Shown here: positions 4,680-55,549 of the stretch, piece after piece
Position numbering within the stretch: position 1 is the stretch's first letter
Layout: the number at the start of each line of letters is the position of its first letter
DNA from: Shigella phage Sf23
Sequence record: MF158046
DNA: 64,000 bases
Strand: one strand, 5' to 3'
Translations under genes and position numbers: made by a program
Notes under the pieces: generated by a model
The model's database searches: none
Seen by the model: the letters and a program-made list of their open reading frames with translations, nothing else
What the model was told of the DNA's origin: nothing

Positions 4680-4965
4680 CTGTGATTTCGGTTACGATAT
4701 TTTTGTTATTAAAGTTTTTATCGCAATACAGAACATAATTATACTGCATTACACCACCAGACTTAAGTTGTTTTTGCACTTCAGCTTTCATTTTAGGACG
4801 ATCGCGCTCAACAATATTCATAATATCCGCTTCAATTTGAGTTTCAACTTCAGTCTGATCTGCAGTCATAGACCATTCACACAAGTCTTTATCATATCCT
4901 GCCATAGCAGGCTGAGCAGCACAAGAAGCCAAAGTAAAAATTGTAGCAAAAATAAATTTTTTCAT
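4672..4965 (-). CDS. sp: Spackle periplasmic protein (inhibitor of gp5 lysozyme, superinfection exclusion)
   Basis: 97 aa with signal peptide MKKFIFATIFTLASCAAQPAMA; size and position as T4 sp (61.3). Confidence 0.8.
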   Translation of the reverse strand: MKKFIFATIFTLASCAAQPAMAGYDKDLCEWSMTADQTEVETQIEADIMNIVERDRPKMKAEVQKQLKSGGVMQYNYVLYCDKNFNNKNIVTEITGE

Positions 4966-5025
4966 GATAATCTCCTCAGTAGTTTATGTTTATATAGTAT
5001 CTCAATTTCCAACAAAAGTAAACAG

Positions 5026-5325
5026 CTATTTTAAAACTTCTGCATAATCACATGTTACAAACTGTTTCTCTAGCTTAACGATCTTACGAAAGTATCTTTT
5101 GCATTGACGAATCTGCCGTTTCGTAGGACGTACAGCAAACTTAATAAATTCCACTCGACCAAATGGAGGGCTTTCTTCTGCCGGAATATCTAACACCAAT
5201 TCCCACGTATCCGCAATAAGTGCTTTGAATTGAGTATTTTTCCTGACGTTATACGGAGTAGGTTTAAATAAAACAATATGCATATTATCCTCGGCAATCC
5301 ACTTCGCACACTTTCTTGTCATCAA
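5026..5325 (-). CDS. hypothetical protein (61.4-like, 99 aa)
   Basis: ORF between sp and dmd; basic protein, no motif recognised. Confidence 0.5.
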   Translation of the reverse strand: MMTRKCAKWIAEDNMHIVLFKPTPYNVRKNTQFKALIADTWELVLDIPAEESPPFGRVEFIKFAVRPTKRQIRQCKRYFRKIVKLEKQFVTCDYAEVLK

Positions 5326-5467
5326 TGAAAGCTTTAACTAATGCTTTATTAACTTCAGCATATTGAGTAGTAGCCCATTGAACGTCATCTTTCATCATTG
5401 TGATTTCTTTAGTAAACATGCTTTCATTCTTAAACCACCCCATAAAAACTACCTTTACCAATTCCAT
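5285..5467 (-). CDS. dmd: Dmd, antitoxin against host RnlA/LsoA RNase toxins
   Basis: 60 aa, sequence matches recalled T4 Dmd (MELVKVVFMGWFKNESMFTKEI...); early promoter immediately upstream. Confidence 0.85.
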   Translation of the reverse strand: MELVKVVFMGWFKNESMFTKEITMMKDDVQWATTQYAEVNKALVKAFIDDKKVCEVDCRG

Positions 5468-5489
5468 AACAATCTCCTCATTTAACCAA

Positions 5490-5530
5490 CAAGACTACTA
5501 TACCATAGTCTTGTCAGTTTGTAAACTAAA
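5490..5530 (-). promoter_or_regulatory. early-type promoter upstream of dmd
   Basis: GTTTAC (rc 5521..5526) and -10-like TATAGT (rc ~5496..5504). Confidence 0.5.
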
Positions 5531-6953
5531 ATTTTAATTCATTTGCCAAAGCATCTAACTGAGCTCGAGTGGATTCATTTCTTTGATAGCGATTCTGTTC
5601 AGCCTGAATCTGTTGTGAACCTGCTACTTCACTCACTTCGGTTGGAGTAGAATCTTGTTCAATTTCTACCCATTTTTGATTTCCTTTTTGAACACCCATC
5701 AAAAACTTATTCCACTTATTCTTATCACCATATCGTGATTTGATTTGCTTAATAAGTTGTTGTTCAGCAGCTGCTAGCTCCTCGGTTTCAATGACCGCAA
5801 GCATAAAATCAGCTGTTGCTGGAAGACCAGCAGATTCTGCAATATCGCTCATGTTAACATCGGAAGAGTCCCAAGCTTGTTTACCGACCTGTGCTGCAGT
5901 CCAAAGAACAGTTTCGGTTTCAACAGCCAGAGCACGCAATTCCTCTGCGATAGCTTTAACAGTTGTGTAACTATTTTCTGAATAAACTCTAATGCGGCAA
6001 GATTTACAAATACCTAGATAGTCGACAATAATGATTGTTGGAACAAAATTCTTTTTGAGCTTTAATTCATTTAAAAGCGATCGAAATGTATTAGCGTCTG
6101 CCCCACCAGTAGGATACTGTTTAACGATTAAACGACCGAGAGTAGATTTCTCACGCCATTTTTCCATTTTTCCTTTATACTCAGCGTAAGAAATATGCCC
6201 ATCATCAATATCGTCAAGAGAAACATCGAGCATGTTAGCATCAATACGTTTAGCACAGACTTCTTCTGCCATTTCCATGGAGATATAAAGAACGTTATGA
6301 CCAAGCTGCAAATAATCTGCTGCTAATGAACAAAGTCCTAATGACTTACCAACGTTAACGCCAGCCATTAAAACGTTCAGTGTTCCTGTTTCAGCTCCGC
6401 CTTTAGTAATTTTGTTTAGAATTCTGAGTTTAAATGGAACTTTACGAGCTTTATTCATATAAGATAGCCAGCGTGCTTCGTAGTCATCCATCCAATCATG
6501 ACCAACGTAGCTATCAAATGAAATTGATAATGCTTGACGCATGATGTCAGGAATAGCACCAACATCCGGCATTTTCTTATTTCGTTTTTCCGGAGGAAGC
6601 TCAGCATTAGTTTGAATTTCGATTATTTTAGACGTAGCATTAAACATCGCCCTTTGCTGAACATATTTTTCTGTTTCTTTTACTAACCAACTGTGGTCTT
6701 CTGGAGAATCGGCTAGTTTTGAAATAAGTGTTTTTACACCAGAATATTCTGTTTCAGTAAATGAACTATTTTCTAATGCAACATTTAACGCATTAATAGA
6801 TGGAACGCTATGGTACTCATTAACGTGAGATTTAATTAATTTGAATGTATTTTTAGCTGGACCACTTTCAAAATATTCTGAATCCATATATGGCCAAACT
6901 TTTGAAAAATAAGCTTGATCAAATATGAGATGAGAAAGAATAATTTCTACCAC
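5526..6953 (-). CDS. 41: replicative DNA helicase gp41 (DnaB-like)
   Basis: 475 aa as in T4; Walker A GVNVGKS, DnaB-family motifs; synteny 61-41-40-uvsX. Confidence 0.95.
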   Translation of the reverse strand: MVEIILSHLIFDQAYFSKVWPYMDSEYFESGPAKNTFKLIKSHVNEYHSVPSINALNVALENSSFTETEYSGVKTLISKLADSPEDHSWLVKETEKYVQQRAMFNATSKIIEIQTNAELPPEKRNKKMPDVGAIPDIMRQALSISFDSYVGHDWMDDYEARWLSYMNKARKVPFKLRILNKITKGGAETGTLNVLMAGVNVGKSLGLCSLAADYLQLGHNVLYISMEMAEEVCAKRIDANMLDVSLDDIDDGHISYAEYKGKMEKWREKSTLGRLIVKQYPTGGADANTFRSLLNELKLKKNFVPTIIIVDYLGICKSCRIRVYSENSYTTVKAIAEELRALAVETETVLWTAAQVGKQAWDSSDVNMSDIAESAGLPATADFMLAVIETEELAAAEQQLIKQIKSRYGDKNKWNKFLMGVQKGNQKWVEIEQDSTPTEVSEVAGSQQIQAEQNRYQRNESTRAQLDALANELKF

Positions 6954-6962
6954 ACTTACTCC

Positions 6963-7307
6963 TTAAAAGAATTTAAATTTTTTCTTTGACCTTTTATTAA
7001 ATGCATCTTGTAGTTGCATTGTAATACATTTTTCTACATGAGGAGCTAACTCAGCTTTTCTTTCTTGGTCAAGAACAGCAAAGTCCATTACGACTTTTCC
7101 ATCAACCCAATCTAATTTTGTCACATACACAATGTGTGTAGAACCATCTTCTAGTTTAATGACAATCTCCTGGATAACATTTTCCATGGCAGATTTAATT
7201 ATCTTAAGAGATTCATTAAAAAGACGTTCTTTTCTTTCTTCTTCCCCCTCCGAAGAGGGGGATTCATCGATAATTTCTAGATCTAAATCTAAATCATCTT
7301 TATTCAT
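6963..7307 (-). CDS. 40: gp40 head vertex assembly chaperone
   Basis: Positional equivalent between 41 and uvsX; 114 aa from the internal ATG (track ORF extends to 7325); acidic N-terminus. Confidence 0.6.
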   Translation of the reverse strand: MNKDDLDLDLEIIDESPSSEGEEERKERLFNESLKIIKSAMENVIQEIVIKLEDGSTHIVYVTKLDWVDGKVVMDFAVLDQERKAELAPHVEKCITMQLQDAFNKRSKKKFKFF

Positions 7308-8481
7308 TAAATTCTTCCATATCACTTAACTGCTCGAGGTCAGTTTCTAAATCAGCAGCTGATTTACTTTTACTTTCTGGAGATTTAAATTTTTCAACCT
7401 TTGAGTTAATTAATTCATCAACTTCAGCTTCAACAATTTCATTACTATCAATAGCACCTAACTGATAAGCGCGTTTAATAGCATCTCGGAATGGTTGATG
7501 CTTAAATAAAGGACCCCAGAATGTAGTGCAATTGGTATCTTTTGCACGCCAAGATTTTTCTTCGCGAATCATCTCGCCGGTTTCTTCGTCAAGAAATTCA
7601 CGAGCATACCAACCATTCTTAGGTTTTACTACAAATCCTAATTCTAGAGCCATATCTAACAATCCAGAATAAGGATCGATACCACCGTCAAATTTAACAT
7701 CAATAAAGAATTTACTTTTTTCTTTAACGGTACGAGATTTTTCTACATTTAGAACAAATTGATACCCCTGAAGATCAGAACCATCTTTAATCTGACGCTT
7801 ACCGATAATGAATACGGTATCAGCCGAATACATTACGCCTGTACCACCTGTCATCACGGTTTTACTAAACATTTCAATTGTTTCAATTGTATGGTTAACC
7901 GCAACGCATGGAATATTTTTAATGCTAAAATAAGGAGTAACAATACGAAATAATGACTTCAGTGATTTAGCACGAGTCATATCTGCCACAGATTTTTCAT
8001 TCAAGGCGTCTTCCGTTTCTTTCTTAGAAGCCATATTACCGATTGAGTCGATGAATACAATAACCTTTTCACCACGCTCAATAGCTTCAAGCTGATTCAC
8101 CATATCAATTTTCAGCTGTTCAACTGACTGGATTGGCGTATGAATTACTCGTTCCGGGTCAACTCCCATGGATCGCAAATAAGCTGGAGTAATACCAAAT
8201 TCACTATCATAGAATAGACAAACCGCGTCAGGATATTTGTTCAAATATGCCGCAACCATAGTCAAAGACATATTTGATTTAAAGTGTTTAGAAGGCCCTG
8301 CGAAAATAGTTAAACCAGACTGCATACCGCCATCAATCGCACCAGAAATAGCAATATTCAGCATTGGAATTTTTGTACGGATTACATCCTTTTCATTAAA
8401 GAATTTAGATGTAGTCAGTTCAGCAGTCATTTTAGAAGTGGAAGCTTTAATCAAACGGGATTTTAAATCTGCAATAGACAT
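7300..8481 (-). CDS. uvsX: UvsX recombinase (RecA-like)
   Basis: 393 aa; Walker A GPSKHFKS, RecA-fold motifs; matches recalled T4 UvsX N-terminus. Confidence 0.95.
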   Translation of the reverse strand: MSIADLKSRLIKASTSKMTAELTTSKFFNEKDVIRTKIPMLNIAISGAIDGGMQSGLTIFAGPSKHFKSNMSLTMVAAYLNKYPDAVCLFYDSEFGITPAYLRSMGVDPERVIHTPIQSVEQLKIDMVNQLEAIERGEKVIVFIDSIGNMASKKETEDALNEKSVADMTRAKSLKSLFRIVTPYFSIKNIPCVAVNHTIETIEMFSKTVMTGGTGVMYSADTVFIIGKRQIKDGSDLQGYQFVLNVEKSRTVKEKSKFFIDVKFDGGIDPYSGLLDMALELGFVVKPKNGWYAREFLDEETGEMIREEKSWRAKDTNCTTFWGPLFKHQPFRDAIKRAYQLGAIDSNEIVEAEVDELINSKVEKFKSPESKSKSAADLETDLEQLSDMEEFNE

Positions 8482-9407: not shown

Positions 9408-10138
9408 TCACCTTTATAGTCTTTTTTCACAATATGAGTTTCTCCAGTATTCCACCAATGATCAACCAAGTAAAAATGACGAGAATATACATGAAGACTT
9501 CCGACATTCCATATAATAGAACCTGCTTTATACTGACGAGTTGAATCGCCTGCATTCAAATCAGATACTAATTTATCTAATACGTATTTTTGCCATGCAT
9601 AATCATTACGGAATCCGAAGACCACGTCATTTGAGCGCATGCTTACTACTGCATTGACTTTCTTATCACGAATCAGGTACTGTACTGTATTAGTACACAT
9701 GAAATCTGACATACCATCTTTATTGTAATCAAATTGCATGGATGGACGAGTATAAATCATGATACCACGTCGAGAATCAGGATTTTGACCAAGTTCAGCT
9801 AAACACATATCATACTGGGCATAGTTATCTTCTGACCAAATAGCCCAACCATAATTCGAGTTAATTTCGCCTTTAGAAGATGCTACCTGCTGCCAAATCT
9901 TTGGTGTTTCACCTGGAATATCTTTAACAAACAAACTCTTAGATTTATACCATTCAAGTTCGCGCTGAATGTATTCATCATTAAGAGCGCCAAAAATAAA
10001 CGGTTCATCTGCTACAAATGATGCGCCAATAATTTCAATAGTTTTAACACCGGTTTTATCAACTACGAAATCTTTTTCTTTTAATGCAAGCCCCAAATGA
10101 AGACGGATTTCTTCAACTGTCATAGAGTCACTAATCAT
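9398..10138 (-). CDS. 42: dCMP hydroxymethylase gp42
   Basis: 246 aa as in T4 gp42; thymidylate-synthase-like fold motifs; synteny. Confidence 0.95.
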   Translation of the reverse strand: MISDSMTVEEIRLHLGLALKEKDFVVDKTGVKTIEIIGASFVADEPFIFGALNDEYIQRELEWYKSKSLFVKDIPGETPKIWQQVASSKGEINSNYGWAIWSEDNYAQYDMCLAELGQNPDSRRGIMIYTRPSMQFDYNKDGMSDFMCTNTVQYLIRDKKVNAVVSMRSNDVVFGFRNDYAWQKYVLDKLVSDLNAGDSTRQYKAGSIIWNVGSLHVYSRHFYLVDHWWNTGETHIVKKDYKGEWK

Positions 10139-10145
10139 TTAAACC

Positions 10146-30943: not shown

Positions 30944-31186
30944 TTATTCCTTAATTCCTAATACTTGTTTAAAAGTCTCGTCGTAATCAAGACTTTGGCC
31001 CGTTTGTTCTTTATGTTTGTATATAATATCACTTACTTCTGATAGCATATTTTTATATGAACGAGTTAAAGCAGATTTAAGCACGCTGTATCTATCAGGA
31101 AATTTACCATGTTCATTATAATAAGCTATTGCTAATTCACGGACTGCCTTTTCAGCAGCCTCCATATATTCTTTACGCTTGGTCAT
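30944..31186 (-). CDS. hypothetical protein (nrdC.1-position, 80 aa)
   Basis: ORF coupled to nrdC. Confidence 0.5.
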
Positions 31187-31188
31187 TT

Positions 31189-31578
31189 TTAATCCAAAAT
31201 ATTATTAGGCATTGGTTGAACACTCACAAGTTCTTTAAAGAACTCAGTAGAGTCAGGCAATTTAACCATTTCCGGAGCATGCTTACTGAATTTATGTTTA
31301 CATTGACGGCATTTATATTCAAGCTCTGGTTTACGCCAGTTAATCAATTGAACTTGTTCAGTACCGCATTCAGGGCAATTAGGAACGTTTTTAGAAGCTC
31401 TTTCACGTCGTTCAACCATAGCCATAATAGCATCCCATGCTGGAGGTTTAAAATCTAAATCGTCGCAGCCGTGAATCTTTCCACGCATTTCCATATCATC
31501 TTCCTCACCAGCCATAATAATTTTAATTAAACTAGAATTACTTGAAGCTGCAATGTCTTCTAATAAACGCTTTTTCAT
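31189..31578 (-). CDS. zinc-ribbon protein (129 aa)
   Basis: Cys pairs CPECG...CRQCKHKF. Confidence 0.5.
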
Positions 31579-32504
31579 TTCAATACCTCAATAGCATTAC
31601 GTAAACCATTTGCTTTTGCATTAAGAGCTTTTAACAATTTAGTGTGTTCGGCAATCTGAGCTTCAACTTCAACTAGTCGAGATTTGAGGTATTCACGTTC
31701 TTCGCTCAAGTTATCAATCTTTTCTACTTTAGGCTCTTTTACAACTGTCTTATATGTATTAGGGTTCTTCAGTTTAATTAAAATGCGTGAACTGTATAAC
31801 ATTGAACCATTATCTTCGGTTTCGTCATACATTTCAACTACGTCCATCATCTCCACCATCGTGCAGAGTTTATAAGACAACGAACGAATAATTTTGTTGT
31901 GCTTATTAATTTCTCTAGCTGTCATGGTGCCGAGATTACGTGAGTAATAATAAGGAACCTGGATATTAATTAATACTGATGAACCACCTGGCTTGTGTGT
32001 TACTTCATCAGCAATAACCCAATCCTTAACATGAACTGTATTTGTACGGTCATCGCCCGCGGTAAATAGTTTGCGAGCATGCTTAAAAAGCATATTCACT
32101 TGGTCATTGAATTGACAAGCAAATTTATCAGCAAATTTAGTTTCAGGAATGGTAGAAAACCAATCAGCCAAATGAGTCTTTTTAACATCATTAACAATAG
32201 TAAATTCAACCAAATCGGTTATAGATGTCTCAGATTTAATGAAGCTCGGCTTCATAAAGTTTTTAATGTTCTCATGAGCTACAGTAGAAGATAACATACG
32301 AGAACGTTTAAACCATTCAAGCAAATTGCCTAACGAATGAGAATAAGCGTTTTGAGTATCTTTACAGATATGATTTTCCTGACCAACATATTGAAGGAAA
32401 TCACGAAGAATATTATTGATTACTGCTCTGTGTCCTATCTGATAATTACGATGTTTAGTAATAAGACTGTCAAAATAATCAATATAATGTTTACGAGTTT
32501 TCAT
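31575..32504 (-). CDS. member A of tandem paralog family with C-terminal coiled coil (309 aa)
   Basis: First of four adjacent 300-340 aa ORFs with Pro-containing linker followed by ~40-aa heptad-like C-terminus. Confidence 0.55.
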   Translation of the reverse strand: MKTRKHYIDYFDSLITKHRNYQIGHRAVINNILRDFLQYVGQENHICKDTQNAYSHSLGNLLEWFKRSRMLSSTVAHENIKNFMKPSFIKSETSITDLVEFTIVNDVKKTHLADWFSTIPETKFADKFACQFNDQVNMLFKHARKLFTAGDDRTNTVHVKDWVIADEVTHKPGGSSVLINIQVPYYYSRNLGTMTAREINKHNKIIRSLSYKLCTMVEMMDVVEMYDETEDNGSMLYSSRILIKLKNPNTYKTVVKEPKVEKIDNLSEEREYLKSRLVEVEAQIAEHTKLLKALNAKANGLRNAIEVLK

Positions 32505-32556
32505 ATTCTTCTCACTTGGTTAATGGTTTATACTCCGAGCCATCCTTGGCTTTAAA

Positions 32557-33588
32557 TTACTTAATTAACTGTAAAGCTTGTTCAAGACGATCAAGACGAT
32601 TAACGGATTCTTCCCAAATCTTTTTAGCCTGCTCATATTCTTTCTGCGCTTTATTAGAAATTTCTAGAACTTCTTTATAAGCTTTTTCTAATGCAATAAC
32701 TTCTGGACGAATTTCTACCGGTTCAGGTGAATCATCAAGACATTCCATTAGTTCCTCAAGGGTAGTTTCTTCTTTAGGAGTATTCACAATTTCCTCACAT
32801 TTTTGTTGATAAATTTCTTTATCAGTAGGTGAATAAGCACATTTCACTTCACGAAGACTAATTACAATTTTATATCCTTCCCATCCGCATATATTCTTAA
32901 AAGGATATGTATGAATATTTTCTACTGTTTCCATACAAAGTAATGCAGTCTCTAACTGACGAGTTATAGTGCTAGCAATTGAGAAAAATTTATTAATATT
33001 CTTTTGGTTAGCGTTTGGTGTAAAAAATCCATAATTCACAAAAATAGCTACTTTATTTTCATCAAGCTCATATTCTTTTACGATAATCATATCAGAAGCC
33101 AAAGGATGAATTTGACGATAATCGCCATAACATAATTTAGAAGCTGATTTTAGAATTTGTCCTTTGAAAAGTCTGAAATTACTAATCCAACGACGAGTAA
33201 AAATATTCTCAGGGTCTTCTTTATTATTAAGATGATAAGAATTAACATCACCGAACCAATTATATCCTACTACATCTTTGGTTCGTTTAATTTCTTTCCC
33301 AAAATTACCAAGAATATCCCGATTAACCAAATATGAAAGAAGACGAGACTCTTTAAAAGTTTTTTTGATAACATCTTTATCTACACGGCTAGAAATTTTA
33401 CGAATTTCATGAATAAATTTAGTAGAAGAAACAATACTTGCATCAACACTATTGAGCCATTGATTGATAATAGAAAGAACGATATTTTGACCAAACATCG
33501 GTATAGCTTTATCATCAATAACGCTGTTGAACGATTTAATATATTCGTTGCGAGTCATATTAATCTCCTCAGTAGAAAGTAAGAACAT
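32557..33588 (-). CDS. member B of tandem paralog family with C-terminal coiled coil (343 aa)
   Basis: Same architecture; C-terminus ...PEPVEIRPEVIALEKAYKEVLEISNKAQKEYEQAKKIWEESVNRLDRLEQALQLIK. Confidence 0.55.
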   Translation of the reverse strand: MFLLSTEEINMTRNEYIKSFNSVIDDKAIPMFGQNIVLSIINQWLNSVDASIVSSTKFIHEIRKISSRVDKDVIKKTFKESRLLSYLVNRDILGNFGKEIKRTKDVVGYNWFGDVNSYHLNNKEDPENIFTRRWISNFRLFKGQILKSASKLCYGDYRQIHPLASDMIIVKEYELDENKVAIFVNYGFFTPNANQKNINKFFSIASTITRQLETALLCMETVENIHTYPFKNICGWEGYKIVISLREVKCAYSPTDKEIYQQKCEEIVNTPKEETTLEELMECLDDSPEPVEIRPEVIALEKAYKEVLEISNKAQKEYEQAKKIWEESVNRLDRLEQALQLIK

Positions 33589-33620
33589 TATACCACATCC
33601 TTGTGGCGAAGTAAACTAGT
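33585..33620 (-). promoter_or_regulatory. early-type promoter
   Basis: GTTTAC (rc 33611..33616) and TATAAT (rc 33588..33593). Confidence 0.5.
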
Positions 33621-34620
33621 TTAGTGCATTTAGTGCGTTGTTCAGTTTAGAACGTTGCTTCGTGAGATTTTTGACTTTTTCTTGTGCTTTTTCTAGCATC
33701 TTTTCAGCTTCTAACACTTCATTGGTCGCTTTAACGAGTTCATCATCTACTGCCTTAAGAGACTTCTCAATCGCATCCGCGTGCCATTTTTCAACAGGTT
33801 TAAGACTCGGATTTTCAATAGGAAGAAAATTCACTTTATTGAATTTCCATGCATCATTATTACCTGAACTATACATCCAAAATTTAGGATCGTTTGATGA
33901 GTAATTAGTTTGGGGTTCAGGTTTTTTCTCTTGTGTAACTTCGTCCTTTCTCAAAAAATCATATTTAAATGAAACGATCATATCAAGTTCATATGTTGTC
34001 GTATCTAATTTAAATCGTTCGAAATGCTGCGAAATCTTAGACTGAACAGCAGAAACAACATCCATATACTTAAATGCTTCTGTCAGCTGTGATTTAAGAC
34101 ATTCACAAATTGAAAGAGAATTTTTAGTACTAGGTTTAAAGCTAATTCGTGCAGTTCTATTATTTTCTTTTAATGGTCTTACTTCCATCTGAAGAGTATA
34201 ACCATCAAATTTCAGATTCTTTAAGTTAATATCAGAGCCCTTTAATCGACTAGCAGTAGACAAAATTTGCTTTAATTGTTTACGAAATAGAGCAATAAAT
34301 CTCCATTCAATACGATAATGATTTGGATTAAAAAATCCTGTTGATAAATCAACCTTACTCTGACCAACGCCTTGAACAAATAGAGGATTTTTATAATCAA
34401 TAGTTTTACAGAAATCGGTGAGCTGCTCACGAGCAGTCATTTGAGTAATATACCCTGCTTCATTAAAATGACGTAACCATTCACTGCTATTCATATATTT
34501 AAAGTGAATATCACGATTAACTTTATCAGGGTCTAAATTATTTTGGCACAAAAATGTCATAACATCACGAGTATAGCTGGCATTACGAACCATATCTTCA
34601 ATTTGAGAACGAGTTTTCAT
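33616..34620 (-). CDS. member C of tandem paralog family with C-terminal coiled coil (334 aa)
   Basis: Same architecture; early promoter-like element at 33585..33620 just downstream of its stop. Confidence 0.55.
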   Translation of the reverse strand: MKTRSQIEDMVRNASYTRDVMTFLCQNNLDPDKVNRDIHFKYMNSSEWLRHFNEAGYITQMTAREQLTDFCKTIDYKNPLFVQGVGQSKVDLSTGFFNPNHYRIEWRFIALFRKQLKQILSTASRLKGSDINLKNLKFDGYTLQMEVRPLKENNRTARISFKPSTKNSLSICECLKSQLTEAFKYMDVVSAVQSKISQHFERFKLDTTTYELDMIVSFKYDFLRKDEVTQEKKPEPQTNYSSNDPKFWMYSSGNNDAWKFNKVNFLPIENPSLKPVEKWHADAIEKSLKAVDDELVKATNEVLEAEKMLEKAQEKVKNLTKQRSKLNNALNALN

Positions 34621-34628
34621 AGTGTTCC

Positions 34629-35537
34629 TTAAGATTTAAGTAAATCAACAATTTTAATTAACTTTTCACGCTCAGATTTAGCTTTACTACTCAGTCCAGA
34701 TAGTCTGAAAATTTCATCGTCATACTGTTGAATAGAAATATTCAGCTCTTCAATTTGCTTATTAAAATAATCAATTTGCTCAGAATGTTTTTCATTACTG
34801 CGAACTGGTACAGGTTTTGTAGGCAATTTAGTTAAACTGGATTCATCCGGGCGATAAATTAAAATACAACTTGAACCAATCGGGCATTTAGCACCAGACA
34901 CATATTCTAATGTTCCGGCTTCTTTTAAAACTTCAAAAGCTAAACAGAGATGATGCCCCATATTAACATAATCTGTAGAGCGAGCTCTGACGTAATAATC
35001 ATCGCCGCGAATACTAAATTTAAAGCATTTAAGGTCTTCTGTATTATTGGTCTTAAAAATCATTTGTTTATCTAGACCTTTAGCTAATCGAGCGCCTAAT
35101 GCTAATAATCGTCGTTGATTTTCCCACAAATCTGCGATCATTTGGTCAAATGATAATTTCGGCATTAGTCGACCATAAAGGTCGTATCCTTTATTATAAT
35201 TGCGAAGGATTTCACTCGCATTAATACGAGACAATGCTCCAATTTTATTAAGGGCTTTCATAATGCGATTAGATAAATCCATTCCAGACTCGTGTGTTCG
35301 CTGCAAATGTTTTTCTAATCCAAATCCAATATCAACTTTAAATTTATCTAAAATTTCAGCATGAACATCTTTGTCAATAACATTCAAATTCAGAGTTAGA
35401 TTAAATCTATGAAAAAATTTATCTGGCTCTCCACGACGAAGTACAGTCCATTCATTCATTTTTTTATTAACTAAAGATTTAATTACTGCATTGACATTAT
35501 TAATTACTACTGACATATTTTCCTCACTCAATTTCAA
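34629..35537 (-). CDS. member D of tandem paralog family with C-terminal coiled coil (302 aa)
   Basis: Same architecture; C-terminus ...EQIDYFNKQIEELNISIQQYDDEIFRLSGLSSKAKSEREKLIKIVDLLKS. Confidence 0.55.
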   Translation of the reverse strand: MKLSEENMSVVINNVNAVIKSLVNKKMNEWTVLRRGEPDKFFHRFNLTLNLNVIDKDVHAEILDKFKVDIGFGLEKHLQRTHESGMDLSNRIMKALNKIGALSRINASEILRNYNKGYDLYGRLMPKLSFDQMIADLWENQRRLLALGARLAKGLDKQMIFKTNNTEDLKCFKFSIRGDDYYVRARSTDYVNMGHHLCLAFEVLKEAGTLEYVSGAKCPIGSSCILIYRPDESSLTKLPTKPVPVRSNEKHSEQIDYFNKQIEELNISIQQYDDEIFRLSGLSSKAKSEREKLIKIVDLLKS

Positions 35538-35931
35538 TTTTACTAAATACGCAGAATATGATGGAAAAGACTATATAAGCACCGCATACAGATTGAACTA
35601 ATACCATTCCAAAGAACCAAACAATATTATCAAACAATGTCTGTTTTACGTCGAAAGGACGTAAACTTACAGTAATATTATCACCTTTTTCTATTGACGA
35701 ATACATCTCTGGTGAAATATATTCGCTAAATCTATAACCGTCTTTGAGTTCATATACGGCAATAAACGATAAACTAGACCCCTTTCCTTGAGTTCCTGTA
35801 ATGGTATTAACTACAGTAACATCATAATCTTTATAATGCATATAATCATTAATAGCATAATAACCATATGCAATTACTATACATAAACAACATATCAATA
35901 AATTCAATCTTTTAATTATCAACTGTTTCAT
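35524..35931 (-). CDS. membrane protein (135 aa)
   Basis: N- and C-terminal hydrophobic helices flanking a beta-rich middle. Confidence 0.5.
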   Translation of the reverse strand: MKQLIIKRLNLLICCLCIVIAYGYYAINDYMHYKDYDVTVVNTITGTQGKGSSLSFIAVYELKDGYRFSEYISPEMYSSIEKGDNITVSLRPFDVKQTLFDNIVWFFGMVLVQSVCGAYIVFSIIFCVFSKIEIE

Positions 35932-35986
35932 AATAATCTCAATTAAAAGGGCTTAGAACCATTATACCATCCTTGGTATAAAGCGG

Positions 35987-36514
35987 TTATGCGAGTACCG
36001 TCTTTAACCGTTCTTCAAACTTCCGAAGAGTATTTTGGCGTTCAGCTCTTTGCTTTTTGTAAGTTTCAATACGCTCTGAAATGAGAGTGTATCGTTCATT
36101 TACTGATTCTTTCATAAAATCAGGAATTTCACGAGAAGCTTTAATCTCGTCAAATTTATCAATAACAGCTTGCTCTTCAGCAATTAAGTTATCATACATC
36201 AAAATATCTTTCTTGATGAACTCAATATCTTCTTGAGTTACACGAGATAATTTAGATGCTTTATCCTTTTTGTACTGTTCGTTAGTATCACGAGACCAGT
36301 GTAATGTACGATTTTTATTCGTATTCTTGTAAATTTCTACAATACCGATCTCGTCAATAATAACGATCCAATTCCAACGGGATTTGTAAATTTGTCCTCC
36401 ATCAACAGTGATTTCACCTCCAATTGAGATGTCATTAAAGAACTTGCTTTGTGCTTCTGATTTAAATTTACCATCGTTGTAATTTACCAGGTTGAAAATA
36501 TCTTTAGCGTTCAT
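35987..36514 (-). CDS. hypothetical protein (175 aa from first ATG)
   Basis: Track ORF extends to 36574 by reading through the early promoter (artefact MFTRPFLCGTIQLSTT); true start taken as MNAKDIF. Confidence 0.5.
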   Translation of the reverse strand: MNAKDIFNLVNYNDGKFKSEAQSKFFNDISIGGEITVDGGQIYKSRWNWIVIIDEIGIVEIYKNTNKNRTLHWSRDTNEQYKKDKASKLSRVTQEDIEFIKKDILMYDNLIAEEQAVIDKFDEIKASREIPDFMKESVNERYTLISERIETYKKQRAERQNTLRKFEERLKTVLA

Positions 36515-36534
36515 TTTGTGTTCCTCCGTAGTTG

Positions 36535-36575
36535 ATAGTTGTATAGTACCACAGAGGAACGGTCTTGTAAACAAC
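36535..36575 (-). promoter_or_regulatory. early-type promoter, conserved extended family
   Basis: rc of GTAAAC at 36567..36572 and TATAGTACC at 36542..36550. Confidence 0.55.
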
Positions 36576-36889
36576 TAAAAGAAACTTCTTTCACAATTTT
36601 TTCCACTGAACCACGCACTCACTGCTTTCTTAGTCTCAGGAGCAGTGTTATCCATAAACCATTCAAAGGCAGCCTTTTTATGATTCTGGAGGGCTTCTCG
36701 GGCTTTAATCTGCTCACGGTCTATTAACACTAACATATGAGCCTTTCTTGTCACCATGGGCTTCTTATGATTTTTTGAATACTCCCAATCATTTGTCCAT
36801 CGCATCGTTGTTGCGAACTGAAATACTGCTTCTTTAATTTTAGTTTCGTAAATTTCACGAGCCTTTGAGTATAACATCACTACCTCCAT
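36575..36889 (-). CDS. hypothetical protein (104 aa)
   Basis: ORF, no motif. Confidence 0.5.
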   Translation of the reverse strand: MEVVMLYSKAREIYETKIKEAVFQFATTMRWTNDWEYSKNHKKPMVTRKAHMLVLIDREQIKAREALQNHKKAAFEWFMDNTAPETKKAVSAWFSGKNCERSFF

Positions 36890-54718: not shown

Positions 54719-54794
54719 TGGTCGAGGCAGTAGGGATCGAACCTACGACCTAGGACTTAGAAGGTCCTTGCTCTTCCTTCTGAGCTATGCCTCG
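54719..54794 (-). tRNA. tRNA-Arg (anticodon UCU)
   Basis: Hand-folded cloverleaf: acceptor CGAGGCA/TGCCTCG, anticodon loop CTTCTAA, T-loop GGTTCGATCC, CCA encoded. Confidence 0.8.
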
Positions 54795-54798
54795 TATT

Positions 54799-54873
54799 TG
54801 GCGGACGTGATAGGATTCGAACCTATAACCAATCGCTTAACAGGCGATCGCTCTGCCATTGAGCTACACATCC
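54799..54873 (-). tRNA. tRNA-Asn (anticodon GUU)
   Basis: Hand-folded: acceptor GGATGTG/CACGTCC, anticodon stem ATCGC/GCGAT with loop CTGTTAA, T-loop GGTTCGAATCC, CCA encoded. Confidence 0.75.
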
Positions 54874-54877
54874 AAAT

Positions 54878-54964
54878 TGGTGGGGAGTGATGGAGTCGAA
54901 CCACCCGAGTCGCAATGACAATGGATTTACAGTCCACACCGCTACCTCTACGGGATAACTCCCC
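54878..54964 (-). tRNA. tRNA-Tyr (anticodon GUA), class II with long variable arm
   Basis: Hand-folded: acceptor GGGGAGT/ACTCCCC, anticodon loop CTGTAAA, long variable arm GTCATTGCGACTCGG, T-loop TTCGACT, CCA encoded; resembles E. coli tRNA-Tyr. Confidence 0.75.
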
Positions 54965-54976
54965 TAATTCATAATT

Positions 54977-55051
54977 TGGTGGCCCTGGGTGGAATTGAAC
55001 CACCATCTGGCGATTATGAGTCGCTTGCTTGAACCTTCCAGCTACAGGGCC
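54977..55051 (-). tRNA. tRNA with CAU anticodon (Ile2/Met type; T4 tRNA-Ile position)
   Basis: Hand-folded: acceptor GGCCCTG/CAGGGCC, anticodon loop CTCATAA, T-loop GGTTCAATTCC, CCA encoded; 1 nt from tRNA-Thr. Confidence 0.75.
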
Positions 55052-55052
55052 T

Positions 55053-55128
55053 TGGTGCTGATTGACGGAATCGAACCGCCGACCTTCTCATTACAAGTGA
55101 GTTGCTCTACCTACTGAGCTAAATCAGC
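55053..55128 (-). tRNA. tRNA-Thr (anticodon UGU)
   Basis: Acceptor GCTGATT/AATCAGC, anticodon loop CTTGTAA, T-loop GGTTCGATTCC, CCA encoded. Confidence 0.8.
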
Positions 55129-55133
55129 AAAAC

Positions 55134-55223
55134 TGGCGGAGGCGATAGGATTTGAACCTATGAGTCGCCGGAGCGACTGCCGGTTTTCAAGACCGGTGCA
55201 TTAAACCACTCTGCCACGCCTCC
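55134..55223 (-). tRNA. tRNA-Ser (anticodon UGA), class II
   Basis: Acceptor GGAGGCG/CGCCTCC, anticodon loop CTTGAAA, long variable arm, T-loop GGTTCAAATCC, CCA encoded. Confidence 0.8.
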
Positions 55224-55225
55224 AG

Positions 55226-55299
55226 TCTCCATACAAGGATTTGAACCTTGGACCTCCTGATCCCAAATCAGGCGCTCTACCAAACTGAGCTACACGGAG
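55226..55299 (-). tRNA. tRNA-Pro (anticodon UGG)
   Basis: Acceptor CTCCGTG/TATGGAG, anticodon loop TTTGGGA, T-loop GGTTCAAATCC; no encoded CCA; 2 nt from tRNA-Ser. Confidence 0.8.
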
Positions 55300-55309
55300 T
55301 AAATTAAAT

Positions 55310-55383
<74 letters not shown>

Positions 55384-55388
55384 AAATT

Positions 55389-55475
55389 TGGTGCGAGAAG
55401 TGGGACTCGAACCCACAAGGAAATCATTCCGCAGCATTTTAAGTGCTGTGCCTTTACCAATTTGACCATTCTCGC
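55389..55475 (-). tRNA. tRNA-Leu (anticodon UAA), class II
   Basis: Acceptor GCGAGAA/TTCTCGC, anticodon loop CTTAAAA, long variable arm, T-loop GGTTCGAGTCC, CCA encoded. Confidence 0.8.
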
Positions 55476-55476
55476 G

Positions 55477-55549
55477 CTGGGAATAAAGGACTCGAACCTT
55501 TGCATCCTGGAATCAAAATCCAGTGCCTTACCAACTTGGCTAATTCCCA
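55477..55549 (-). tRNA. tRNA-Gln (anticodon UUG)
   Basis: Acceptor TGGGAAT/ATTCCCA, anticodon loop TTTTGAT, T-loop GGTTCGAGTCC; no encoded CCA; 1 nt from tRNA-Leu. Confidence 0.8.

Follow-up and report, generated by a model that had tools for sequence, protein, structure and literature searches.

On the evidence of profile alignments, the four genes corresponding to nrdC.3, nrdC.4, nrdC.5 and nrdC.6 of phage T4 are tandem duplicates that belong to one small superfamily, and since nrdC.5 disarms the defence system Dsr1, its paralogs nrdC.3, nrdC.4 and nrdC.6 make good candidates for counter-defence genes yet to be recognised. The anti-Dsr1 role of nrdC.5 is already known, and what we propose here is the NrdC.3-6 superfamily. 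T4 is the best-studied phage, yet no function for nrdC.3, nrdC.4 or nrdC.6 is reported in the literature searched, and if their products are full-length paralogs of NrdC.5, the one anti-Dsr1 protein known, and the genes lie between four other experimentally supported counter-defence genes, 49.2, nrdC.1 and nrdC.8 among them, they are specific candidates rather than anonymous ORFs.

The window, i.e. the whole stretch of 64,000 nucleotides that was analysed, is by DNA comparison that of a Tequatrovirus, a T4-like phage, with 97-98% identity to Tequatrovirus genomes. The four adjacent ORFs pointed out in the earlier note are indeed found, on the minus strand (31575-32504, 32557-33588, 33616-34620 and 34629-35537; paralogs A to D), and are by protein identity (Table 1) the orthologues of T4 nrdC.3, nrdC.4, nrdC.5 and nrdC.6, the gene order nrdC.2-.3-.4-.5-.6-.7 being identical to that of T4. 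The lengths of 309 and 334 aa given for them hold, but those of 343 and 302 aa are of maximal ORFs with probable true sizes of 333 and 295 aa. The nrdC.4 gene probably starts at Met11 (33558), given the placement of a promoter-like site and of a GAGGAG Shine-Dalgarno sequence 6 nt upstream of this ATG, and T4 NrdC.4 begins at residue 11 of the maximal ORF of paralog B. Similarly nrdC.6 probably starts at Met8 (35516), since a GAGGA Shine-Dalgarno sequence precedes that ATG, the maximal ORF reaching 35537 with a TTG start, and both revised starts are consistent with the T4 proteins as well as with alignments of the family. Promoter-like sites are no more numerous across the region than in shuffles. 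The stop codon of nrdC.3 overlaps the nrdC.2 start (ATGA).

Table 1. Features of the nrdC.3-nrdC.6 locus and of neighbouring genes, in window coordinates
Feature	Position	Strand	Basis
Gene 49.2 orthologue, 106 aa	29963..30283	-	Length and position as T4 49.2
nrdC.1 orthologue, 80 aa	30944..31186	-	Mean identity of 99% to five orthologues (T4 plus four related Tequatrovirus loci)
nrdC.3 orthologue, paralog A, 309 aa	31575..32504	-	60% full-length identity to T4 NrdC.3; phrog_1435
C-terminal heptad helix, paralog A, residues 265-309	31578..31712	-	10/13 a/d positions L/I/V/M, p=0.001
nrdC.4 orthologue, paralog B (probable start)	32557..33558	-	96.7% identical to T4 NrdC.4; phrog_1435
Pro-rich linker and C-terminal helix, paralog B, residues 288-343 of maximal ORF	32560..32727	-	Ends RLEQALQLIK
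Promoter-like site, sigma-70/early-type, nrdC.5-nrdC.4 gap	33587..33615	-	TTTACT-17-TATAAT, TG upstream of -10; consensus match only
nrdC.5 orthologue, paralog C, 334 aa	33616..34620	-	90% full-length identity to T4 NrdC.5; DUF7235
C-terminal helix, paralog C, residues 274-334	33619..33801	-	Ends QRSKLNNALNALN; AF2, heptad p<0.0005
nrdC.6 orthologue, paralog D (probable start)	34629..35516	-	95% identical to T4 NrdC.6; phrog_2257
C-terminal helix, paralog D, residues 252-302	34632..34784	-	AF2; heptad p=0.005
nrdC.8 orthologue, 175 aa from Met21	35987..36514	-	phrog_2274 aligns from residue 21

That the four genes are paralogs, as had been claimed, is borne out by BLASTP, by hhalign and by shuffle controls. 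Paralogs A and B are the closest pair (BLASTP E 1.7e-6; hhalign 98% probability, E 5e-14), the combined A+B profile matches paralog C collinearly over the full length (93% probability, E 3.8e-7, z=14 against column shuffles), and the profile of all three matches paralog D with E 5e-4 (z=8.5 against column shuffles), rising to 99.1% probability and E 9.6e-19 when intermediate representatives are added (null maximum 12.7). In addition, the left-out representative P0257 matches both sides (98.5% and 96.3%), and the MAFFT alignment displays shared blocks of motifs in collinear order, the four proteins having in common three conserved N-domain blocks, the linker and the C-terminal motif in the same order. 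It might be argued that such likeness is an artefact of AT-rich, Lys- and Glu-rich composition and generic coiled-coil similarity, since most pairwise BLASTP comparisons among the four are non-significant and tests with HMMs of the C-terminus alone are weak. This explanation is however hardly tenable, as it is refuted by column shuffles, which keep the composition and reach at most 12.7-22 against observed values of 52.6, 34.9 and 137.9, and as the alignments run collinearly over about 260 columns that mostly lie outside the helix; structural matches found independently by Foldseek with paralog D likewise speak against it.

The proteins consist of an alpha/beta globular domain of about 230-280 residues, a flexible Pro-containing linker and an amphipathic heptad helix of 45-60 residues. 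A linker followed by a heptad-like helix, earlier put at about 40 residues, is thus present in all four, and all share one heptad register when it is counted from the C-terminal end, the C-terminus of paralog B aligning end-to-end with the other three. Enrichment of L/I/V/M at a/d positions over composition-preserving shuffles is significant in three of the four (Table 1), the exception being paralog B (p=0.12, for the 343-aa ORF). For paralog C, AF2 predicts a single long helix at 274-333 (pLDDT 73-92) even without an alignment. In the AF2 model of paralog D, a linker of low confidence at 236-248 (KLPTKPVPVRSN) leads into a helix at 252-301. The last 12 or so residues carry the motif [QE]R..L..A[IL]..L[KN] in the superfamily. 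Similarity among the C-termini taken alone, which the earlier note had put forward as its test, is found, if weakly: an HMM of the last 45 residues built by leaving one family out does not recover the omitted family, but one built from remote relatives only has the nrdC.5 C-terminus as its top match (E 2.7e-5), with nrdC.6 in register but non-significant (E 0.34) and nrdC.3 and nrdC.4 not convincingly found. Of the proposed shared oligomerisation or docking module, the common helix therefore stands, and a role in oligomerisation or docking is plausible from its periodicity and from the AF2 monomer models.

These features also bear on a model that spells out the earlier reading of the locus, in which a conserved C-terminal coiled-coil module for docking or oligomerisation has been fused by domain shuffling to unrelated N-terminal effectors. 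All four proteins end in a linker and a helix in the same register, few positions in the superfamily are as well conserved as the terminal L/A/L, and in every orthologous group conservation is somewhat higher over the last 45 residues than elsewhere (0.83/0.71, 0.72/0.56, 0.56/0.50 and 0.72/0.66), all of which would agree with such a module. The N-terminal regions are however homologous and collinear in full-length profile alignments, the strongest pairwise signal (A against B) falls in residues 1-227 and hence outside the C-terminus, and similarity confined to the C-terminus is weak, so that shuffling is a highly improbable explanation. The notion of one module carrying different effector domains is contradicted by this collinear homology, and the claimed N-terminal divergence is real in extent (12-25% identity) but not in kind, since the regions are related and their conserved blocks follow one another in a common order.

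This is a small superfamily, of which 1.84 billion proteins contain 36 representatives, and all members with a traceable source come from T4-like phages (Straboviridae), in which the copy number is 4, 3 or 1 depending on the genus. Pfam and PHROGs split it into three families (PF23882, PF26897 and PF26899; phrog_1435 and phrog_2257). Paralog C, which is 90% identical to T4 NrdC.5 over 334/340 residues, matches DUF7235 (PF23882) over residues 1-334 with 385.6 bits (cut-off 30); the Pfam scan gave no PF23882 match for the nrdC.3, nrdC.4 or nrdC.6 ORFs, which are therefore not DUF7235 members at the Pfam level, and PF26897 and PF26899 are carried by homologues of paralogs A and D, respectively. 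As to the view of a diversifying family, the four genes evolve faster (dN/dS 0.12-0.28) than their neighbours endoVII, nrdC, nrdC.8 and nrdC.10 (0.01-0.07), the gene-wide values all being below 1 and hence no sign of positive selection. Between genera, the identity of nrdC.5 orthologues drops to 21-27%.

The AF2 model of paralog D, the only usable one among the four proteins, has a pLDDT of 79.7, against 40 for the single-sequence model of paralog C. With the former, Foldseek retrieves proteins of 304-335 aa from other Straboviridae (E 4e-7 to 2e-3), TM values being 0.4-0.5 for the relatives with E down to 4e-7, and an nrdC.3 orthologue is matched with E 2e-3 and probability 0.93 but with a TM of only 0.21. 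Searches of the PDB with the nrdC.6 model and of PDB sequences with nrdC.5 gave no relatives among solved structures. Neither a thioredoxin-fold domain nor a CxxC motif is seen that would mark the proteins as thioredoxin or NrdC: none of the four has a thioredoxin or glutaredoxin Pfam match and the nrdC.6 model has no thioredoxin-fold match; the widespread annotation of nrdC.3-nrdC.6 as thioredoxin in GenBank records, which we flag as mistaken, appears to have been propagated from the locus name nrdC.N. It has to be considered whether the proteins are enzymes, acting for instance on a defence signal or an NAD-related metabolite to alter it or break it down, rather than stoichiometric binders, seeing that block 2 shows very strong conservation among nrdC.6 proteins (NQRRLLALGARLA.G.DKQM.FKTN) and that other anti-NADase strategies, such as the NARP pathways, are enzymatic. 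Across 19 clades, however, the conserved positions are hydrophobic or structural apart from two basic residues and include no constellation of acidic, His, Cys or Ser residues, and no enzyme family is matched by Pfam, PDB sequence or fold, which makes an enzymatic function very improbable.

Turning to function, T4 nrdC.5 restores infection on cells carrying Dsr1, a NAD-depleting sirtuin defence (PMC9391042; Srikant, Guegler and Laub 2022), so that the statement that none of the four has a known function is outdated for this gene, and the accompanying guess of an action against host defence fits the published role. T4 nrdC.5 has been described as an early gene, and nrdC.3-6 are non-essential accessory genes that can be deleted in the laboratory. 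With 10% of its residues unlike those of the T4 protein that was tested, the copy in the window could have another specificity, and the literature searched holds no published mechanism for NrdC.5 against Dsr1. Among the four, nrdC.5 alone has an experimental link to defence, and the other three are candidates; in the available part of the transposon-screen tables the orthologues of nrdC.3, nrdC.4 and nrdC.6 are non-significant, bas37_0201 coming closest (log2FC -0.73, q 0.81).

The explanation we favour, with some confidence, is that of a family, duplicated in tandem, whose members inhibit host immune proteins by non-enzymatic means, differ in specificity and are oligomerised by the C-terminal helix. 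All four proteins would be stoichiometric binders, the diverged globular domain would set the target, so that no two paralogs would neutralise the same defence protein or allele, and the helix would make the inhibitor oligomeric and lend it avidity for oligomeric targets. That the same family instead comprises accessory regulators or scaffolds in processes of phage or host, such as transcription, nucleotide metabolism or replication, the effect of nrdC.5 on Dsr1 being indirect, seems unlikely. As an extension of the inhibitor explanation, and one we regard as a decidedly long shot, the paralogs could co-assemble into a multi-specific counter-defence complex or the family could target a single class of Dsr1-type sensors. 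Such co-assembly may be made possible by the C-terminal helix, in which all the paralogs keep one heptad register and one terminal motif, R..L..A[IL]..L[KN], and mixed oligomers may then display several different recognition domains at once; alternatively each paralog may be tuned to a different variant of one sensor, an idea that derives from the report that the sensor domain of Dsr1 is common to Avs7 and other systems (PMC13581612).

Inhibitors of host defence are known from the same accessory block, which extends from gene 49 to nrdC.11. T6 Gp49.2 is a reported inhibitor of OLD (PMC13096335), and T4 nrdC.1 and bas37_0203 (NrdC.8), to which the nrdC.8 orthologue of the window corresponds by position and length, are reported to inhibit Septu and Druantia III, respectively (bioRxiv 10.1101/2025.11.20.689424). 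Like the four paralogs these genes are non-essential and without known domains, and each acts against a single host defence system, but they are small (80-175 aa), single-copy and unrelated to the paralogs in sequence, the hhalign comparison of nrdC.8 with the superfamily profile being non-significant, so that it is not a family member. Single-copy, uncharacterised structural relatives are encoded by other Straboviridae: Acj9p122, CPT_Merlin91, Klebsiella phage F48 gp057 and Escherichia phage EcS1 gp091, for example, are of like length (300-350 aa) and have the same N-domain, linker and helix ending in QR..L..A[IL]..L, although they are only 12-16% identical to the proteins of the window. Acj9p122 and CPT_Merlin91 furthermore occupy the same neighbourhood, between gene 49/nrdC and nrdC.10, but a single copy is seen in the block in Acj9 and Merlin rather than three or four. 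Compared with T4 NrdC.5 itself, the only one of these proteins in DUF7235, the products of nrdC.3, nrdC.4 and nrdC.6 are remote full-length paralogs of the same architecture that fall in PF26897 and PF26899, and in phrog_1435 and phrog_2257. Outside the superfamily, neither DSAD1 nor chains of DSR2 complexes are among the PDB matches of the nrdC.6 model or the nrdC.5 sequence. DSAD1 of phage SPbeta is, like NrdC.5, encoded by a phage and counteracts a SIR2-type NADase. As far as the accessible part of its description goes, it suppresses the sirtuin defence DSR2 in competition with the tail tube protein that activates this defence, and would therefore be the nearest mechanistic analogue for the way in which NrdC.5 could block Dsr1.

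The region 31000-36600 of this T4-like phage, a Tequatrovirus, is matched over at least 80% of its length by more than 460 phage genomes, the best of them at 98% identity, and the flanking ORFs are recognisable as T4 endonuclease VII, Pin and NrdC. By position as well as by sequence the four minus-strand ORFs, here called A to D, correspond to four T4 genes, and the region is ordinary insofar as this block of genes is known from T4 and one of its members has a published counter-defence role. The earlier note's observation of four tandem paralogs is largely right and its interpretation partly so, the lengths of 343 aa (nrdC.4) and 302 aa (nrdC.6) being those of maximal ORFs from which the proteins are likely shorter. 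Judged from the nucleotide sequence, the likeliest start of nrdC.4 is Met11, the ATG at 33558, for a protein of 333 aa; this ATG has a GAGGAG Shine-Dalgarno before it, and the upstream ATG falls inside the -10 element of a promoter-like site, TTTACT-17-TATAAT. The likeliest start of nrdC.6 is Met8, the ATG at 35516 behind a GAGGA, for a protein of 295 aa. T4 and every homologue in the family alignments agree with both revised starts. The site directly upstream of nrdC.4, the sole promoter-like site mentioned here, is a consensus match only, and the promoter scan gave 25 sites against 27±5 in shuffles, that is, no excess. Translation of the nrdC.2 orthologue is coupled to that of nrdC.3 by an ATGA overlap, and elsewhere in the window a local G+C peak of 0.43 is explained by a cluster of ten tRNA genes.

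Coordinates of the four paralogs and of other features in the window and in comparison loci
Feature	Position	Strand	T4 counterpart	Remarks
ORF A	31575-32504	minus	nrdC.3	60% identity to T4
ORF B	32557-33588	minus	nrdC.4	96.7% identity to T4
ORF C	33616-34620	minus	nrdC.5	90% identity to T4
ORF D	34629-35537	minus	nrdC.6	95% identity to T4
nrdC.2 orthologue	31189-31578		nrdC.2	129 aa; CxxC...CxxC zinc-ribbon (sub-threshold Pfam Zn_ribbon_8, E 7e-6)
nrdC.8 orthologue	35987-36574 (likely 35987-36514)		nrdC.8	charged terminal helix too, unrelated to the four paralogs
tRNA cluster	54719-55549	minus		Arg, Asn, Tyr, Met, Thr, Ser, Pro, Gly, Leu, Gln
Window stretch corresponding to the P0057 fusion	~34186 down to ~31575			
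nrdC.6 deletion, T4 reference NC_000866 (L001)	10067-10140		nrdC.6	opposite window 34629-34700
Split nrdC.4, one Tequatrovirus contig (L005)	8950-10003		nrdC.4	two ORFs, 200 and 158 aa
NAD-related gene pair, Acinetobacter phage Acj9 (L015)	4691-7345			

The notion of variable effector domains presented on one conserved module is not supported, since the profile alignments are collinear over the full length and the proteins share blocks throughout; they are instead whole-length paralogs of 12-25% identity. The sole significant BLASTP pair is A and B (residues 3-224, 24% identity, E 1.7e-6), which both belong to phrog_1435 in PHROGs and which hhalign, with family alignments drawn from three database searches, pairs at 98% probability (E 5e-14). 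The combined A and B families align with C over 257 collinear columns (93%, E 3.8e-7), and using divergent nrdC.5 orthologues of other genera the match persists at 90% and E 1.5e-6, with a score of 52.6 against a column-shuffle maximum of 21. The joint ABC profile matched D at E 5e-4 before intermediates were included (score 34.9, highest null score 19.5), which is suggestive only. A joint-profile search of 1.84 billion representative proteins returned 36 matches, among them about 15 further members of full length (285-364 aa), several of which fit more than one family model: P0257 matches C at 9e-8, D at 4e-5, B at 3e-4 and A at 7e-4, and P0252 matches D at 5e-14, B at 8e-5 and C at 4e-4. With these intermediates the ABC side aligns with the D side over 260 columns at 99.1% probability (E 9.6e-19, score 138, null maximum 12.7), and P0257, when left out of both profiles, matches the two sides at 98.5% and 96.3%, respectively. 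A plain MAFFT alignment furthermore displays five common blocks in conserved order, namely F[KN]..g.LS...A...L..F.K, Q..[IL]L...A[SR][RK]L..G.D, L..A...M[DE].V, a kP.PV linker and the C-terminal motif. Sequence searches of Pfam, PHROGs and PDB with the proteins revealed no functional domain, the window holds no further paralog, and nrdC.8, nrdC.7 and nrdC.2, considered as extra family members, gave nothing significant in the profile test. Pfam and PHROGs divide the superfamily, a literature search on the family Pfam accessions yielded nothing and no paper in the searched literature states the unification of nrdC.3-6 with their relatives from other T4-like phages, which appears to be new.

The proposed Pro-containing linker and heptad helix are real, as each of the four proteins ends in a helix behind a stretch that contains Pro, AF2 predicts the helix for C and D, and leucine, isoleucine, valine and methionine are enriched at heptad a/d positions relative to composition-preserving shuffles in A (p=0.001), C (p<0.0005) and D (p=0.005), the value for B (p=0.12) not being significant. 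Counting back from the C-terminus, all four have the same best register. In the nrdC.5 orthologue, modelled from single sequence at an overall pLDDT of 40, one helix at 274-333 (pLDDT 73-92) is the only confident part, and in the nrdC.6 orthologue a helix at 252-301 follows a low-confidence linker at 236-248. C-terminal similarity beyond composition, which the note had also implied, is weak when the C-termini are taken alone. BLASTP among the four proteins gave no significant C-terminal match, and since an HMM of the last 45 residues of three families never recovered the fourth among the window's 193 ORFs, we do not claim that the C-termini by themselves are significantly similar. When 13 remote relatives alone supplied the C-termini for an HMM, its top match was the nrdC.5 C-terminus (E 2.7e-5); nrdC.6 was matched in register (E 0.34), nrdC.3 had an E of 0.92, and nrdC.4 was absent from the top ten. 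What the proteins do share is a pattern in the last dozen residues, [QE]R..L..A[IL]..L[KN], exemplified by EREKLIKIVDLLKS and in remote members by QRDKLMKALKVLKS and QRGKLLRAIQALK, whose L, A and L rank with the best-conserved positions of the superfamily across 19 clades.

The AF2 model of the nrdC.6 orthologue (pLDDT 79.7, pTM 0.65), built on a 48-sequence alignment covering all four families, begins with a helical part and continues with a sheet of four strands and its packing helix, the low-confidence linker and a terminal helix of 50 residues. A Foldseek search with this model as its only query against predicted viral structures recovered nrdC.6 orthologues, as expected, together with uncharacterised proteins of about 304-335 aa (12-16% identity, E 4e-7 to 2e-3, TM up to 0.5) from T4-like phages of Pectobacterium, Enterobacter, Acinetobacter, Klebsiella, Citrobacter and Yersinia. 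One match is a 308-aa nrdC.3 orthologue; that in Acj9 is Acj9p122, between gene 49 and nrdC.10, and that in Merlin is CPT_Merlin91, which lies between an nrdC.7-like gene and an nrdC.10-like ATPase, also matches the ABC profile (E 1.9e-4) and ends in KLASAVEALNE. Judged from the model, the superfamily fold would seem to be without relatives among solved structures.

Tblastn retrieved 652, 577, 600 and 740 phage records for nrdC.3 to nrdC.6, respectively, and nearly all entries in the listed records and in the tallies by organism are T-even-type phages whose hosts are Escherichia, Shigella, Yersinia, Salmonella and Citrobacter; named sources among the traceable remote representatives are Klebsiella phage F48-like phages and Escherichia phage EcS1, the others coming from contigs, three of them 167-173 kb in length. 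Nine more distant T-even loci (170-kb genomes, e.g. VR7, JS98 and IME281) have nrdC.4, nrdC.6 and a highly divergent nrdC.5, nrdC.3 being absent from them, and one copy each was found in the equivalent gene block of Acj9 and Merlin. Among six Tequatrovirus genomes dN/dS is 0.28, 0.17, 0.20 and 0.12 for nrdC.3 to nrdC.6 and 0.01-0.07 for endonuclease VII, nrdC, nrdC.8 and nrdC.10, with no gene-wide value above 1. The nrdC.3 gene is strongly polymorphic within the genus, its identity to T4 contrasting with 90-99% for its neighbours. Its tblastn identities fall into bands (95-99% in 224 records, 90-95% in 130, 60-80% in 206 and below 60% in 86), and these bands together with a mean dS of 0.69, as against about 0.1-0.2 in flanking genes, suggest old alleles exchanged by recombination.

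The 299-aa protein P0057, encoded on a contig of 167,058 bp, is a natural in-frame fusion of nrdC.5 ~145-266 to nrdC.3 ~129-309 across a short FN(K/DQ)VN microhomology, with nrdC.4 and the nrdC.5 helix deleted, and it follows that the paralogs recombine with one another in the wild. Two nrdC.6-like proteins of unusual length or intermediate character, one of 378 aa (P0059, BFVD A0A2K9VMF6, Shigella phage Sf25) and one of 323 aa with 30% identity to nrdC.6 (A0A6B9WW03, Escherichia phage moha), may represent additional fusions or hybrids in the family, and the split nrdC.4 is probably a frameshifted pseudogene. In the T4 reference a 1-nt deletion in nrdC.6 (gagctg-atatt against gagctgaatatt) puts 16 unrelated residues in place of the entire C-terminal helix, giving 275 aa, and the +1 frame still codes for the helix perfectly. 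Because nrdC.6 is full length in another T4 record, KJ477685, and in the T4 annotation on which HIDEN-SEQ relied (891 nt), the deletion is due either to a mistake in sequencing or to a mutation of a particular stock. In GenBank the label 'thioredoxin' is widespread for nrdC.1-nrdC.9, also as 'putative thioredoxin', with as many as nine occurrences in a genome, and nrdC.5 appears in one T6 record under the name 'tail sheath stabilizer and completion protein'. A thioredoxin domain is absent from all four nrdC.3-6 proteins, and the thioredoxin label seems to have been propagated from the nrdC locus name.

As to function, T4 nrdC.5 gave a deletion mutant back its ability to plate on cells with Dsr1 of ECOR17, a defence protein with a SIR2 domain and a presumed effect on NAD+ levels (PMC9391042). 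The sensor domain of Dsr1 is common to Avs7 and of a class that recognises phage major capsid proteins (PMC13581612), and mimicry of the capsid protein was considered for this reason; the PDB matches of the nrdC.6 model, the one model searched for this, include no capsid fold. Other genes of the block likewise counter defences, Gp49.2 being an OLD inhibitor (PMC13096335), nrdC.1 a Septu inhibitor and bas37_0203, which is the nrdC.8 orthologue by position and length, a Druantia III inhibitor (bioRxiv 10.1101/2025.11.20.689424). Transposon insertions in nrdC.3-6 are tolerated and en bloc deletion is possible, and the transposon-screen tables examined list no significant phenotype for the nrdC.3, nrdC.4 and nrdC.6 orthologues. 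The conserved positions of the superfamily are hydrophobic, with two basic residues, and do not form a plausible catalytic set. From the anti-Dsr1 activity, the anti-defence neighbours, the dispensability and the lack of a catalytic set we infer that the nrdC.3-6 products, those of nrdC.3, nrdC.4 and nrdC.6 by extension from nrdC.5, are probably non-enzymatic inhibitors of host immune proteins, in which the diverged globular domain would confer specificity and the C-terminal helix would mediate oligomerisation. The unification of the superfamily yields specific predictions, open to test, for three T4 genes that are still uncharacterised. In Acj9 a nicotinamide phosphoribosyltransferase adjoins a ribose-phosphate pyrophosphokinase, a pair resembling the phage NAD+ reconstitution pathways that act against NAD-depleting defences.
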